A stretch of 32,000 nt of DNA from Candidatus Heimdallarchaeota archaeon (GTDB taxonomy: Archaea > Asgardarchaeota > Heimdallarchaeia > Heimdallarchaeales > Kariarchaeaceae), in assembly GCA_030149205.1 (NCBI GenBank), contig JASBSB010000006.1, positions 210,001 through 242,000 on the forward strand, read 5' to 3'. Position 1 is the first letter of the stretch. Every line of letters begins with the position of its first letter. The notes under the pieces are model-generated. The model did not search any database. It was given only the letters and a program-made list of their open reading frames with translations, and was not told the DNA's origin. This document shows, piece by piece, positions 5,519 through 13,745 of this stretch. Made by a program: the position numbers and the translations under genes.

Positions 5519-6550
5519 GTGCCGAGGATATATTATTCCGACAAGGGATTAAAACACTTTATGGGTGAAAATCATCTTGAATCACCTACCAGATTAAAAG
5601 TGTTAAGAGATGCCTTTTCCAATCAATCAACACTTTCTGTGAAATGGAAAGAAGCTAGGGATGCCACTCAAACCGAGCTTGAAACAACTCATTCAATCAC
5701 ACATATTGAAGAAATAGAGGAATCTCAAAATCACCAGTTCACAGAATTCACCCCTGATACAATTGCAAATGAGTTTACATACGAAGCAGCTTTATCCGCA
5801 GCGGGTGGAACAATTCAAGCAGCTCTATATGCCTTTGAAAAAAAACAGATCACTTTTGCAATGCTTAGACCTCCAGGTCATCATGCAACACATTCTGCTG
5901 CAATGGGATTTTGTTTCTTTAATAATGTAGCAATTGCAGCTAACATTTTAAGAACCGAAAAAAATTTAGATAAAATTGTAATCCTAGACATCGATAATCA
6001 CCATGGAAACGGAACACAAAGTCTTTTTTACCAGACCCCTGAGGTATTATATATTAGTCTACACGCACACCCAGCCTTTGCCTATCCTGGTACGGGATTA
6101 TGTACAGAAACAGGAGATGGCCTAGGATCTGGATTTAATATAAATATCCCTCTAACTTATCACATTGATGACAAAAACTACCTTTTAGCCATAGATGAAA
6201 TAGTTCTTCCAATAATTAACATTTATGATCCTCAAATGATGTTGATCTCATTAGGTTTGGACGGTTTACAAAATGACCCCTATGGAGCGTTATCTCTCTC
6301 TCCAGATGGGTTTTATGAGATTGGTAATAAACTAACTCAACTAAATGTCGTCAAAAATGGAAGAGTATCAGTAGTTTTAGAGGGAGGGTATAATTATGAA
6401 GACATGGGAAGAGCTACGGTTAACTTTTTTGAGGGAATAGAAGGAGTAGAGAGGGTAATTTCTCAGGAAGAATCTGATATCGACCCCGAGTTTATACGAA
6501 TTCTCCGCAAGGTAAAAGGTATTCAACGGGGATATTGGATTGGATTATAA
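5519..6550 (+). CDS. Zn-dependent histone deacetylase family (HDAC/AcuC/APAH) protein
   Basis: RPPGHHA, GFCFFNN, DIDNHHGNGTQ, SLH, YPGTG, GLDG..DP and LEGGY are all intact; GTG start. Confidence 0.95.
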   Translation: MPRIYYSDKGLKHFMGENHLESPTRLKVLRDAFSNQSTLSVKWKEARDATQTELETTHSITHIEEIEESQNHQFTEFTPDTIANEFTYEAALSAAGGTIQAALYAFEKKQITFAMLRPPGHHATHSAAMGFCFFNNVAIAANILRTEKNLDKIVILDIDNHHGNGTQSLFYQTPEVLYISLHAHPAFAYPGTGLCTETGDGLGSGFNINIPLTYHIDDKNYLLAIDEIVLPIINIYDPQMMLISLGLDGLQNDPYGALSLSPDGFYEIGNKLTQLNVVKNGRVSVVLEGGYNYEDMGRATVNFFEGIEGVERVISQEESDIDPEFIRILRKVKGIQRGYWIGL

Positions 6551-8817: not shown

Positions 8818-9993
8818 ATGCTGATAACCGATACTCTATCAAACGAAGATACAATTTTGCCTCAATTAAGAATAAACTTTGAATATCCAAATGACTGGTC
8901 TGAAAATATCATTACCTTACAAAAATTATATCTCGATAAACATGAGTTAAACTCTCCACCACGTGCGTTCAATGAGACTATTGAACTTTTGAAAAATTAT
9001 GCAAGGACTTCGTTGATGCTGGAAAATGAAAAGAGTATTGAGGCTTTGGTTTGGGCTAGTATTGGATTACTGGAGATATATCTGCTGGCACAAAACCCTC
9101 AAATTACAGAGCTCTTCTTAACCAAAATCGGTTCAGCCATTTTTATCAACCATCATGAATATGGTCGCTGTAAAACAGACCTTTTTTTTACGGAGAATCT
9201 CTGGTATGCCATCAAAAACAGGGTAGAATTTGAAACCGGTCAAGCACTCACTCCTCTTTCACCAGCGTTGAAGGTGGGATTAGTGAGTTCAATCGGAGCT
9301 CTACGTATTTCAATTCAAGTTGAACCTCTTTCTCCTGAAGGACCAACTATGAATATACGAAGGCTACCATCTAAACCAATTACCTTGGAATCATTGGTTT
9401 CTCAGGGTCAGCTTTCAAATAGAATTTCCGAATTATTAATGGATTCGCTAAATCAAAGAAAGAATATTATCATAGCAGGAGAACCCGCATCAGGAAAAAC
9501 CACCTTAGCTAATTCATTACTTTTAAATGTTGATCCAACATGGAGATTAATTGTTATTGAGGATGCCCGAGAACTGATAATAGACCATAACAACCATCCA
9601 TTAACAACCAGGTTCTCTATGCCAAGCGTTGGTGCGGATTCCCGATATTCTCAACGTGCCAATGAAATCGCCAGGCTACTACATAGATCCCCAGATTATG
9701 TGTTCTTGGGAGAGATTCAGAACAAAGATGACAGTCTAGCTACATTTGAAGGATTTGCAGCTGGTCTAAGAGGGATTGCAACAACTCACGGAAAAAACTT
9801 GGAATCTTTATTATCAAGATGGACAAACAGTCATGGAATGCCATACCAATTGCTCAGCTCAATTGACCTGATAGTTTTTACACGTAGAATTTTTCACGAT
9901 GGGAAGATTGATTTGAAAGCTGACAAAGTATATTGTCGAAAAGAAGGAATTAGGTTTGATGGATTTTCAGAGGTAATGGAACTTGGATCTTGA
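8818..9993 (+). CDS. Type II/IV secretion ATPase, CpaF/TadA/VirB11 family
   Basis: Walker A GEPASGKTT, Asp box IEDARE, Walker B PDYVFLGEI, His box ATTHG, and NIRR motif. Confidence 0.92.
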   Translation: MLITDTLSNEDTILPQLRINFEYPNDWSENIITLQKLYLDKHELNSPPRAFNETIELLKNYARTSLMLENEKSIEALVWASIGLLEIYLLAQNPQITELFLTKIGSAIFINHHEYGRCKTDLFFTENLWYAIKNRVEFETGQALTPLSPALKVGLVSSIGALRISIQVEPLSPEGPTMNIRRLPSKPITLESLVSQGQLSNRISELLMDSLNQRKNIIIAGEPASGKTTLANSLLLNVDPTWRLIVIEDARELIIDHNNHPLTTRFSMPSVGADSRYSQRANEIARLLHRSPDYVFLGEIQNKDDSLATFEGFAAGLRGIATTHGKNLESLLSRWTNSHGMPYQLLSSIDLIVFTRRIFHDGKIDLKADKVYCRKEGIRFDGFSEVMELGS

Positions 9994-11173
9994 TAAATAT
10001 TTTCAAGAGTTACCAAATTTGCCCCTAGAGGCGAGGATATTTTTGATCTCAAACATTAGTATAGTTTTGTTCACTGTAACTCTTTTCATTTTTACATCAA
10101 GCCAACTATTCCAGGAATTTAATAATTTCATATTGTTATTAAGTCTGACTTTACTTAGTTTTGGTTTATACATAGGAGTGATCCTTCATTTCGAGCAAAA
10201 AAGGTTAGAACTCGACAGAAAAAGATCTTCTTGGCTCCTAGGTCTTCTGCAAAGGGGAATTCTGTCAAAGGTGATGGTATCACCATCAAATATATGGTAT
10301 CTAGCCACAGTTACGAACCGAATTGACCTCACAAGTTTTAGAGCGAGTGAGCTAGGGATAGAAAAGGTTCAAATCCCTGATGTTGAGACTTTTCCCCCAG
10401 ATTTAGAGTTAGCTGAGCGAGAACTGACTAAAGTTGAGGAAAGATCCTCAATTTTATTGTCGATTGTTGTTTTCATTCCTATTATGTTTGCTTTATTAAA
10501 CATGTTTAGACGAACGGAGATTTATTTGGCTCTTTTGGAGGGTCAGGTGGCATTAATATTTGGAGCTTCACTTTTGTATTATTTCCGTCAGATGACCAAT
10601 TTATCCGGATGGGAGAAAACCGTTTCTAGATTAAATTTACTCAAAGATGATATCATCGTTTTAGGAAAGCGAAATTTGATAAATAAAACAGATATTTTTG
10701 AAAAACCAAGATCCTTAGAAATAGGAATGGAATTAAACAAACTGGAGGGGTCTCCAGCTCTAGAAACCCTTGCAACTATAATAAATATCGCAACAAGCCT
10801 ACCTAGGGAACTAAGAGAGAGGTTTATTGATAGAACTCTTGAAGATTTGAAAGATTTACCAAAGGAAGAAAAGTTAGTTGACATTCGTTGGAAGGCGTTT
10901 AGAGCAAGAGTCATCTTTATGATAACAACCGCAGTCGCTATTGTGGGGTTAATTTCTGGGATCAGTTCATTTATTGTCCCGAAGCTTGTGTTTGCCTCCT
11001 TACCTATAGGGTCAACGCCATATATAGAATTTATCATTTTTACTCTCTCAATAACACTTAGTGGGTTACTCGCTAGACTATGGTTCCAGTGGAAGGAAGT
11101 CATCAATTGGGTAATTGTTTGGAGCTTGGAATTTTGGATTTTTCGCTATTTTGCAATACTGATTCTTCAATAA
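9983..11173 (+). CDS. Polytopic membrane protein, probable divergent TadC/T2SS-F platform partner
   Basis: Overlaps the ATPase stop by 11 nt. Paired TM hairpins alternate with helical soluble domains. The family is assigned from context only. Confidence 0.6.
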   Translation: MDLDKYFQELPNLPLEARIFLISNISIVLFTVTLFIFTSSQLFQEFNNFILLLSLTLLSFGLYIGVILHFEQKRLELDRKRSSWLLGLLQRGILSKVMVSPSNIWYLATVTNRIDLTSFRASELGIEKVQIPDVETFPPDLELAERELTKVEERSSILLSIVVFIPIMFALLNMFRRTEIYLALLEGQVALIFGASLLYYFRQMTNLSGWEKTVSRLNLLKDDIIVLGKRNLINKTDIFEKPRSLEIGMELNKLEGSPALETLATIINIATSLPRELRERFIDRTLEDLKDLPKEEKLVDIRWKAFRARVIFMITTAVAIVGLISGISSFIVPKLVFASLPIGSTPYIEFIIFTLSITLSGLLARLWFQWKEVINWVIVWSLEFWIFRYFAILILQ

Positions 11174-11189
11174 ATTGGAGTCCAATTAA

Positions 11190-11621
11190 CTATAACACAG
11201 ATAACTCAATTTGGGAATACTTGTTATTGGCCAAACTCCAGCATTTTACAGCTGTTGTATTCGAATTTTGGTCAAGTTTCAATATAAGATAATAAAGATT
11301 GGGTACTGAATACAAGAGATCCGTTTTTGATGGAATTGCCTTCCCATTTGGGTGGGAATGGAATATCCCCATCAATTCCAGACCCAATGCCGTTTGTTTT
11401 TCTTCTATTGACAAAAGTTCAAATGGATCAATCAGATACTCAGTCCTAGGTGAAGTTGAGATGTTCTTTACAAATATGACTCGATCTACGATTAGACTGT
11501 CGTCAGGAAACGAAAAAACAAGAGCACACGATTCATTAGGTAGGTTTGTCTTAGATTTATTGACGAGTTGCCGAAATATATGTCTTGGGAGAACAATTAC
11601 TTTTTTTTCTCCATCTCCCAA
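11190..11621 (-). CDS. JAMM/MPN+ (Mov34) metallo-isopeptidase
   Basis: NESCAL (catalytic Glu) and GIFHSHP-x5-PS-x2-D JAMM motif. No upstream ATG; the only start is a TTG inside the GNAT gene. Confidence 0.9.
   Translation of the reverse strand: MGDGEKKVIVLPRHIFRQLVNKSKTNLPNESCALVFSFPDDSLIVDRVIFVKNISTSPRTEYLIDPFELLSIEEKQTALGLELMGIFHSHPNGKAIPSKTDLLYSVPNLYYLILKLDQNSNTTAVKCWSLANNKYSQIELSVL
11585..11621 (-). promoter_or_regulatory. Candidate -1 frameshift / translational-coupling element at the GNAT-JAMM junction
   Basis: Minus strand reads TTGGGAGA-TGGAG-AAAAAAAA-GTAATTGT-TCTCCCAA. The heptamer A_AAA_AAG (11606-11600) is in GNAT frame just before TAA. The 8-bp inverted repeat lies at 11614-11621 / 11585-11592. 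Confidence 0.45.
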
Positions 11622-12025
11622 CTCTTAACTTTGAATTTATTTGAGTTCCAAAATCTCATTCCACCTTCAGTGACAGCTCTAGCTGAAAGAGATTTATTAG
11701 GATAAAGTTCTTCAGCATACTTTACGAGTCTAGATGCTAAACCACTTCTTCGAAAGTCTAATCTGACATAAAGGGACTGCAAGTGTACTTTCTCTCCTTT
11801 TACATCAGTGTCCAAAATCCCGATTAGCTCATGGTCAGTAAAGGCTAGAATAACAGATGTTCCTTGACCATTATTGACCTTCTGATTAATTTCATCCCCA
11901 GAATTTCTTAAAAAATCAGGGACAGTTTCATCTTTGCTGGCAATTAGTGCAAAGTCATATATTGCTCCACTGTCTTCAGAGGTTGCAACTCTCAATGTAA
12001 TTTTCGAGGCATCTAATGGTTTCAT
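11597..12025 (-). CDS. GNAT N-acetyltransferase
   Basis: LYVRLDFRRSGLASRLV motif A; FW..NKF motif B-like end. Confidence 0.88.
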   Translation of the reverse strand: MKPLDASKITLRVATSEDSGAIYDFALIASKDETVPDFLRNSGDEINQKVNNGQGTSVILAFTDHELIGILDTDVKGEKVHLQSLYVRLDFRRSGLASRLVKYAEELYPNKSLSARAVTEGGMRFWNSNKFKVKSWEMEKKK

Positions 12026-12107
12026 ACAATATTAGTAACCTTAAGCTTTATTAGGTTTTATTCATTCTAACCTACAATTCTTCCCATTCAAGCCAAAATT
12101 TCATGCG

Positions 12108-13745
12108 TTAGACTACGTTTGTAATTTTTTTGATCACCAGATCATTACTTAGTACTTCTACTGCTTTGTTGAACCCATGTTCAGTTAATTGGTTTAAGAT
12201 ATCAAATATCTCCAAGACAAATTCAAGATCATCTGAATTCAACATTTCTTCAGCCATTTTTTGAATGGTACCTTCAACACCAAATTTTTTATAATACACT
12301 TGTTGAGACCGTCTCAACCATCTACCAAAGGCCTTGAATGCCTCCTCTGTGGTTCGAGCACCAGAGAATTCCAAGAAGTACTCATCTTTAATTGTGAAGT
12401 CTTGAGAGATCAATTCCAAATTTACATGCCAATCGTGTCTAACACTAGGAAGTTCAAGGATTTCCATAAAATACTCCTTCCAGGTTAGTTCTGGCTTTGG
12501 GTTTAACAAAGTTACAGGTGTGAAATTTCTGTTTTTATCAACAATTATCATTCGTATTCCCCAAAGACTACTTTCCTTAGGAGCAATAAGGAGGTCACTC
12601 ACCAATAATCTCTCCTTGATTTTCTGTATTGTATTACTAAGTAAAAGAACTATAGATGAACGGATTTTGGTTATCTGTTTTGTACGTAAGGCTTGATGAA
12701 TAGCCTCAGAGGGAAGCATGCTTAAAGAAAACATGAGTCGCTCGTCACCTTCCTGTAGGGTTCCATTAGTCCAGAATTCAAGATCAAATGTTTCATTAAG
12801 CACGATGTAAGGGCTTGGATTGCCTAATAACATAGTCCCAAGGTTTGTAATCTCTCCCCTTAACATGTCTTCTGAAAGTTGTCCAGTTAATCGCCACTCC
12901 ACATTACTTTCACGAAAAATATCTCCAAGTATTTCGACCATTACCCTGGTCATTTGTCCCTCTCGTTTCACATGATGTAATAATTTCTCAAAAAATAGCA
13001 TGACTTGTAATATTTTTTTACCCTTAATATCTGTAGATTCTACCAACTGTTCAAACAAAGCCACAACAGCTGGTTCTTTAGATTGACTTTCTTCTTCCTC
13101 CTCTTCAGAGGTAGTCTCTTGATCAAAGAGGTCTAGGGTCTCAATCTCTTTTAAATCATCAAAAGCTGCTAGGAGCTCATCCTCACTGATACCAAACTCA
13201 TTAAGAACATCATCCTCCTGTTTTGGGATCCCCTGTGAACCCAAAGTCTCTAATTCGGAAAATGGGTTAGTTTTATCCAAGATGTTGGGATCCTCCTCAA
13301 CCTTTACCTGAGAAAGTCTTTTGTTTCTTTGTTTTGGTGGTTCATGGACTTGCCACAGTGCCTCAACATCAACTTCTTCTTCAACTTTAACCAACTGATC
13401 GATCTGCTCATCAATTATGTCAATGATCCTAAAATATGACCAGAGATATGGTATATTCTTAAAAATATCTCGATATAATTTTAGATTCTCCTTTGCCTTG
13501 CTGACTGTTGTACTGAACAGAATTGGTTCTTGTTTCCACTCAGTGTATTCATCTAATTCTACAGACTTCTCCTTATGTTTCTTCCTTGGAAATGCTTCTC
13601 TACGCTTTTTCGCATCTGAAACATCAAAAAGCATGTACCAGGCAATTGGGAAAAAAGTGTTTGATGAAAAAGCAGGTAAAAACTTGTTTTCTTTACCTTT
13701 TTTTATCGCAGGGATAGGGTCTTCCCCAATGTAAAGAAAACTCAT
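12108..13745 (-). CDS. Hypothetical 545-aa acidic multidomain protein
   Basis: Long ORF with a TATA-like TTAATAA 22 nt upstream and a central acidic low-complexity region. No family recognised. Confidence 0.8.
   Translation of the reverse strand: MSFLYIGEDPIPAIKKGKENKFLPAFSSNTFFPIAWYMLFDVSDAKKRREAFPRKKHKEKSVELDEYTEWKQEPILFSTTVSKAKENLKLYRDIFKNIPYLWSYFRIIDIIDEQIDQLVKVEEEVDVEALWQVHEPPKQRNKRLSQVKVEEDPNILDKTNPFSELETLGSQGIPKQEDDVLNEFGISEDELLAAFDDLKEIETLDLFDQETTSEEEEEESQSKEPAVVALFEQLVESTDIKGKKILQVMLFFEKLLHHVKREGQMTRVMVEILGDIFRESNVEWRLTGQLSEDMLRGEITNLGTMLLGNPSPYIVLNETFDLEFWTNGTLQEGDERLMFSLSMLPSEAIHQALRTKQITKIRSSIVLLLSNTIQKIKERLLVSDLLIAPKESSLWGIRMIIVDKNRNFTPVTLLNPKPELTWKEYFMEILELPSVRHDWHVNLELISQDFTIKDEYFLEFSGARTTEEAFKAFGRWLRRSQQVYYKKFGVEGTIQKMAEEMLNSDDLEFVLEIFDILNQLTEHGFNKAVEVLSNDLVIKKITNVV

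Follow-up and report, generated by a model that had tools for sequence, protein, structure and literature searches.

In the window (the whole stretch of 32,000 nt analysed here), a GNAT acetyltransferase gene and a small JAMM gene, which overlap on the minus strand, probably encode two separate proteins and form an ordinary overlapping pair in which initiation of JAMM is coupled to translation of GNAT. The junction between them is not conserved, the slippery heptamer that marks it is ancestral and common, coupling is usual, JAMM is intact and its homologues stand alone; taken together, these points make a coupled pair the probable reading. We infer that the two genes are both co-transcribed and coupled. 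The original prediction had offered, as one of three readings, a regulated -1 frameshift producing a GNAT-JAMM fusion, and this option was not upheld: the heptamer predates the junction, nothing at the junction is conserved, no structure follows the heptamer, a tRNA-Lys(CUU) is present and no fusion protein was found in searches of weak power. Recoding lacks any comparative support in the sequences compared here.

The gene pair and its overlap

The GNAT frame ends with GAG AAA AAA AAG TAA at 11611-11597 (minus strand). The JAMM frame, which is -1 relative to GNAT, is open from 11627 only, and TTG 11621 is its only ATG, GTG or TTG codon ahead of the catalytic Glu (Table 1). All the sequence features described in the original prediction were borne out at their coordinates: the sequence carries the heptamer 11606-11600 abutting the GNAT stop, the open reading frames place JAMM exactly in the -1 frame with no ATG and only TTG 11621, and a perfect 8-bp inverted repeat pairs 11621-11614 with 11592-11585. 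In the JAMM frame, the 3′ arm of this repeat falls on the codons V-L-P; the L-P part is conserved widely.

Table 1. Features of the GNAT-JAMM junction (positions in the window)
Feature	Position	Strand	Description
GNAT acetyltransferase gene	11597..12025	-	142 aa, ATG start, TAA stop 11599-11597; from the open reading frame list and Pfam
JAMM/MPN+ (Prok-JAB) small gene	11190..11621	-	143 aa from TTG 11621; from Pfam, alignment and SNPs
A8 run	11601..11608	-	with G 11600 gives the in-frame A_AAA_AAG 11606-11600, abutting the GNAT stop
TTG, sole canonical start for a complete JAMM	11619..11621	-	25-nt overlap with GNAT
Shine-Dalgarno-like GGGAGATGGAG	11609..11619	-	GGAG cores 11618-11615 and 11612-11609; GNAT codons W-E-M-E
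GTA 11600-11598 and ATT 11597-11595	11595..11600	-	first JAMM-frame codons at the GNAT stop
Inverted repeat 3′ arm TCTCCCAA	11585..11592	-	pairs with TTGGGAGA 11621-11614; JAMM codons V-L-P

The GNAT translation matched PF13673, PF00583 and PF13508 in Pfam, with 34.2 and 32.5 bits for PF00583 and PF13673 (above the cut-offs), and features the acetyl-CoA loop R-R-S-G-L-A (pattern R/Q-x-x-G-x-G/A); it reached no equivalog in NCBIfam. JAMM matched PF14464 (Prok-JAB) with an E value of 4e-15 and 56 bits against a gathering cut-off of 25, and the domain starts at about residue 8-9 of the TTG-started protein, which is at the GNAT stop. The JAMM motif E, H-x-H, S-x-x-D is intact, with E30, H88, H90, S98 and D101 invariant in the alignment. 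Among PDB sequences, the protein matched the archaeal JAMM1 entries 5ld9/5lda (PfJAMM1, E value 1e-8) and AfJAMM. No known protein shares more than 37% identity with it, and the near-invariant Gly after the E-x-C motif is replaced by Ala. When strains at 95-99% identity were compared, six out of the eight SNPs were synonymous in the JAMM frame and in no other frame of the same strand (P about 0.02), and the remaining two changes were conservative. The GC content of JAMM is that of its neighbours. On these sequence features, JAMM looks functional.

An exhaustive HMMER search yielded 3686 JAMM homologues, nearly all of them stand-alone proteins of 130-150 aa, and in many of the 150 best of the 3686 the initial Met aligns with residues 8-9 of the TTG-started JAMM. 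The 10 longest of these 150 contained other domains or none, and no GNAT domain by Pfam. Word-based searches, which are weak, found no longer proteins with either the JAMM or the GNAT query, and a further one for JAMM relatives of near length returned only JAMM itself. The literature held nothing relevant on a GNAT-JAMM association or on frameshifting in Heimdallarchaeia.

On its other side, JAMM faces a convergent pair of genes (window 8818-11173, plus strand) across a 16-nt gap between gene ends. The first encodes a T2SSE/FlaI-like secretion ATPase (391 aa); the second, which overlaps it by 11 nt and has a TTG start, encodes a polytopic membrane protein (396 aa) that belongs to no family. 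The two form a pilus/archaellum-type assembly pair.

Origin of the junction and of the heptamer

The region 11000-12300 was compared with the Logan contigs (contigs, not raw reads) of four runs. A contig of 97.8 kb, with a depth of 75 and from the probable source run, is identical across the whole region with the A8 run ungapped, and a 166-nt contig from an unrelated study of a hydrothermal vent metagenome covers 11539-11704 with no mismatch and no gap; contigs from two strains at 95-99% identity stop short of the junction itself. Since the A8 run is ungapped in two data sets, a hidden in-frame fusion is very unlikely, and the homopolymer error that had been proposed as hiding a constitutive fusion is rejected at the contig level, at which a rare A9 variant would not show.

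Both genes were present in 12 of the 40 related genomes searched, and in none of the 12 are GNAT and JAMM adjacent and co-directional. In two genomes of the same genus, G001 and G003, JAMM is followed by a 545-aa gene in the same direction and then by a convergent GNAT. In a third one, G002, GNAT is again convergent to the 545-aa gene, the small JAMM (~157 aa) lies on another contig, and two further, weaker PF14464 matches occur in longer frames. The remaining nine of the 12 have GNAT and JAMM on different contigs. None of 31 loci had a GNAT of this type near a JAMM homologue, and a metagenome scan for close JAMM relatives gave 18 loci, all of at most 40% identity and none beside such a GNAT. 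Because the two genes are never adjacent and co-directional in relatives, the junction is, as judged from these genomes, a rearrangement private to this lineage. A check of orthologous loci had been part of the original prediction; the heptamer, frame and junction as found here are not conserved in the 12 relatives, the outcome it had named as a refutation.

The tail of GNAT has a longer history than the junction. GNAT orthologues from the same genus and family (45-57% identity) end in W-x-M/L-x-K-K plus two residues, as in W-K-M-V-K-K-M-D, W-K-L-E-K-K-L-V and W-E-M-I-K-K-L-T. The GNAT of G002 reads GAA AAA AAG and thus has the same in-frame heptamer, beyond which there is only the convergent 545-aa gene on the opposite strand. 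The presence of these lysine codons in orthologues with no JAMM downstream indicates that the heptamer predates the junction. By this comparison, the A-run and heptamer most likely represent an inherited lysine-rich GNAT tail in an AT-rich genome rather than a recoding signal.

The frequency of such features in the genome (3.3 Mb, 35.5% GC) points the same way. A/T runs of 8 nt or longer number 490 and AAAAAAG words 1704, and a crude, ORF-based set of 2773 genes has 272 in-frame A_AAA_AAG sites and 6886 in-frame X_XXY_YYZ sites with Y = A or T. A slippery heptamer lies within the last ~8 codons of 5% of the crude genes, and at 20 of the slippery sites the -1 frame stays open for 100 codons or more. 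At 2.6% of gene ends there is a perfect inverted repeat, 8 bp or longer, with a loop of 3-30 nt. The features of the junction are not beyond chance for this genome. With slippery heptamers everywhere in an AT-rich genome, a heptamer and a -1 frame without conservation are no evidence of recoding.

As every genus genome contains a single small JAMM, the copy studied here is probably the orthologue of the G001 and G003 copies. Its identity to the genus orthologues is 29-37%, versus 48-57% for neighbouring genes. Between G001 and G003, JAMM has 49% identity and the neighbours 63-69%; JAMM being the fastest-evolving gene there as well, its divergence is a property of the family. In G001, JAMM starts with an ATG 3 nt past the stop of its upstream gene, and in G003 it overlaps the upstream gene by 8 or 35 nt, so that a close junction with the preceding gene is seen in these relatives as well.

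The surrounding genes differ among these genomes as well. The 545-aa protein (window 12108-13745, minus strand) is acidic in its middle region and belongs to no family of Pfam or NCBIfam, and an Atlas feature search gave only low-score ARM/HEAT-like leads. Its gene adjoins GNAT in all four genus genomes, in two of which it immediately follows the small JAMM, and the protein is possibly a functional partner of JAMM and/or GNAT. A gene of the histone-deacetylase family (window 5519-6550, plus strand; L031:4159-5187) is 5 kb from GNAT here and directly beside it in G001, G003 and G002, a further sign of local rearrangement; the deacetylase-acetyltransferase neighbourhood may hint at the role of GNAT. 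In G002, contig C362 (L034:3693-6376) contains an operon of CysM (cysteine synthase), JAMM (~157 aa), a ThiS/MoaD-like protein (94 aa) and MoeB/rhodanese, which is of the Mec+/CysO type for sulfur-carrier cysteine synthesis. No such neighbours lie by the JAMM of the window.

Initiation of JAMM and rival readings

For a coupled pair of separate proteins, the probable course is as follows. A rearrangement in this lineage joined GNAT and JAMM in tight overlap, the two would share one transcript, and JAMM would be made as its own protein of ~136-143 residues. It would be initiated within the final 25 nt of GNAT, in dependence on ribosomes translating or finishing GNAT, and any frameshift product would be a minor, unselected by-product. 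JAMM may start in one of two ways: (i) at TTG 11621, the only canonical codon; (ii) at the near-cognate ATT 11597 or GTA 11600 at the GNAT stop, which would be served by a GGAG at the usual spacing of this genome.

No Shine-Dalgarno core was found in the 22 nt upstream of TTG 11621. Termination-reinitiation is local in Haloferax and E. coli, falling to near zero at ~20 nt, as tested for starts downstream of the stop (PMC10666635), so the TTG, 22 nt upstream of the stop, may reinitiate inefficiently. Under a first-start rule, this genome has 119 co-directional pairs with a 4-nt overlap and 31 with a 1-nt overlap; in 40 pairs an overlap of 7 nt or more is forced, and three pairs overlap by 25 nt. 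At canonical 4-nt-overlap junctions, 63% have GGAG, GAGG or GGTG at a spacer of 6-11 nt, compared with a 5% background, and the GGAG-to-start spacers of 150 reliable coupled starts have modes at 8 and 11 nt. Measured from the GGAG at 11612-11609, the spacer is 8 nt to GTA 11600 and 11 nt to ATT 11597. These two codons are placed as in a 4-nt overlap (GTAA) and a 1-nt overlap (TAATT), respectively, and both are non-canonical. GTA also aligns with Met1 of many homologues, residue 9 of the query corresponding to residue 2 in many of the 150 best. What counts against a coupled pair is precisely this configuration: the Shine-Dalgarno sequence is placed for GTA and ATT, which are poor or unproven archaeal initiators, and the TTG has none.

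Ten junctions of the genome combine a long -1-frame ORF with no nearby canonical start, and three of them have a correctly spaced Shine-Dalgarno sequence (P about 0.012). The second of the three (L055:1305-1344; contig C4:90204-90243) joins an upstream 369-aa ORF of no Pfam family, ending in ACA TAA, to an ABC-transporter ATPase in the -1 frame. Here GGAGG is followed after 8 nt by an ATA that overlaps the stop (ATAA). The sole canonical start, a TTG, is 40 nt further upstream and has no Shine-Dalgarno sequence, and the overlap contains an in-frame T_TTA_AAG. A start at the ATA would give an N-terminus of the length usual for ABC proteins, suggesting that TAA-stop junctions of this genome use near-cognate starts. 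The third junction (C8:134335) is ambiguous, having an ATG 69 nt downstream. The wider idea that Asgard coupled junctions with TAA stops reinitiate at near-cognate NTA or ATT codons is tentative, and we would sooner expect it to fail than to hold. For annotation, the point of use is how genes are started where a TAA stop precludes overlap with a canonical start codon.

The mechanics of frameshifting were assessed from RNA folding and tRNA genes. The 91-nt junction region folds no better than its shuffles (z -0.70). The hairpin of 46 nt by itself is moderately stable (-11.6 kcal/mol, z -2.88). No stimulatory structure lies 3′ of the heptamer: the 70 nt at 11599-11530 have -1.4 kcal/mol and z +1.48, less structured than shuffles, and the 100-nt stretch past the heptamer is likewise unremarkable (z -0.71). 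The 5′ arm of the inverted repeat is 8-15 nt upstream of the heptamer and therefore inside the footprint of a heptamer-bound ribosome, so the repeat cannot serve as a downstream stimulator. An Rfam search of 11000-12300 gave no match at E <= 1. Of the alternative of hairpin-gated coupling in the original prediction, the coupling survives as the favoured reading and the hairpin is statistically weak. The heptamer does lie in the zero frame of GNAT and inside the overlap, and tRNA-Lys is not a single species in this genome. A tRNA-Lys(CUU), cognate for AAG, is encoded at C4:469849-469924. A tRNA-Lys(UUU) with an intron just past the anticodon loop is encoded at C4:59647-59735 (minus strand); it was missed by ARAGORN, found by similarity and read by eye. 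With no more than 15-18 tRNAs detected by ARAGORN across 3.3 Mb, introns or unusual features are probably present in most tRNA genes of this genome.

Among the rival readings, a true A9 run, with a sequencing or assembly error concealing a constitutive in-frame fusion gene, would need only a single added A to join both frames, in a genome that is a metagenome assembly; as the two gap-free A8 contigs and the failure of the searches to find fusion homologues stand against it, it can practically be dismissed. A programmed -1 frameshift at A_AAA_AAG, or RNA-polymerase slippage adding one A, would yield a selected 278-aa fusion together with free GNAT. It draws on the in-frame heptamer directly before the stop with JAMM exactly at -1, the only A_AAA_AAG with an immediate stop in the 2773 crude genes, on an SD-like GGGAG 8 nt upstream of the heptamer, and on the want of a well-served canonical start for JAMM. 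In E. coli, an upstream SD-like motif, A_AAA_AAG and an adjacent stop each promote -1 shifting (PMC5009743), so some fusion product is possible. There is also archaeal precedent, in that fucA1, which specifies a split enzyme, is the only demonstrated archaeal -1 case (PMC8211752, PMC1616953) and A_AAA_AAR sites are predicted in archaeal Mg-chelatase genes (PMC5009743). However, the junction is confined to this lineage and the heptamer is older than it, the 70 nt past the site are less structured than shuffles, and the inverted repeat has its 5′ arm within the ribosome footprint. The SD spacing of 8 nt is below the dnaX optimum of 10-14 nt. Both tRNA-Lys(CUU) and tRNA-Lys(UUU) are present, whereas it was in E. 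coli that A_AAA_AAG was shown to be exceptionally shifty, a property tied there to a single tRNA-Lys reading both codons (PMC5009743). Moreover, the two globular domains of a fusion would be separated by just some three residues, the homologue searches (the 10 longest of the 150 best, and two word-based searches) give weak evidence against one, and A/T runs of 8 nt or more number 490 in the genome. We therefore regard a selected frameshift as quite improbable. If true, it would bring the cellular -1 frameshifts shown in Archaea to just two, and the fusion would join acetyltransferase and isopeptidase in a new bifunctional enzyme, within the lineage closest to eukaryotes.

The lineage-specific rearrangement allows two further readings. 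JAMM may have lost its start in a recent rearrangement and now be made at least partly as a GNAT-JAMM fusion, through a -1 slip of tRNA-Lys on the heptamer or polymerase slippage within the A8 run; this would be a newborn, lineage-specific recoding event uniting an acetyltransferase with an isopeptidase, and we give it little chance. Alternatively, JAMM was displaced by the recent rearrangement, lost its own start region and is an early-stage remnant, poorly translated or untranslated. Such a remnant would account for a lineage-specific junction at which the JAMM domain begins exactly at the GNAT stop, for the absence of a canonical JAMM start with a Shine-Dalgarno sequence, for JAMM being the most diverged gene of the neighbourhood (29-37% versus 48-57%), and for the Ala in place of the near-invariant Gly after E-x-C. 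It is unlikely all the same, because the frame is open over 143 codons despite the AT-rich genome with all catalytic residues intact, and the strain changes are six synonymous and two conservative. JAMM is also the fastest gene between G001 and G003 (49% versus 63-69%), and GAG GAG, the source of the SD cores, was chosen over the commoner GAA (GAG makes up 37% of Glu codons).

Comparison with known systems

The JAMM protein is like the archaeal desampylases HvJAMM1, PfJAMM1 (5ld9/5lda) and AfJAMM (1r5x) in its ~135-145 aa and its E / H-x-H / S-x-x-D motif, and unlike them in having no SAMP/ThiS-like or E1-like gene adjoining. Against the NCBIfam family desamp_Halo it scores 63.8 bits, under the equivalog cut-off of 130 bits.

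The junction shares with the E. coli dnaX and IS3-family cassettes an in-frame A_AAA_AAG, an upstream SD-like motif and a downstream ORF at -1. It differs from them in that it is without downstream structure, has its SD off the optimum, occurs with a tRNA-Lys(CUU) and is unconserved; in addition, JAMM forms a complete domain on its own, and its homologues are independent proteins. The fucA1 alpha-L-fucosidase gene of Saccharolobus solfataricus is comparable as an archaeal case with an A-rich heptamer (A_AAA_AAT in fucA1), ORFs in the 0 and -1 frames and a short overlap (40 nt in fucA1) (PMC1616953, PMC8211752). In fucA1, however, one enzyme is split into halves that are non-functional alone, whereas GNAT and JAMM are complete, unrelated and separate in all relatives.

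Coupled overlapping gene pairs (Huber et al. 2019, PMC6728339; PMC10666635) offer another comparison. The pair studied here departs from them in having GTA and ATT instead of ATG, GTG or TTG at the stop, and its only canonical start makes a 25-nt overlap, a rare class. In common with them, its genes are co-directional, the start region of the downstream gene lies inside the end of the upstream one, the Shine-Dalgarno sequence sits in the upstream coding sequence at modal spacing, and the stop/start geometry is that of 4-nt and 1-nt overlaps.
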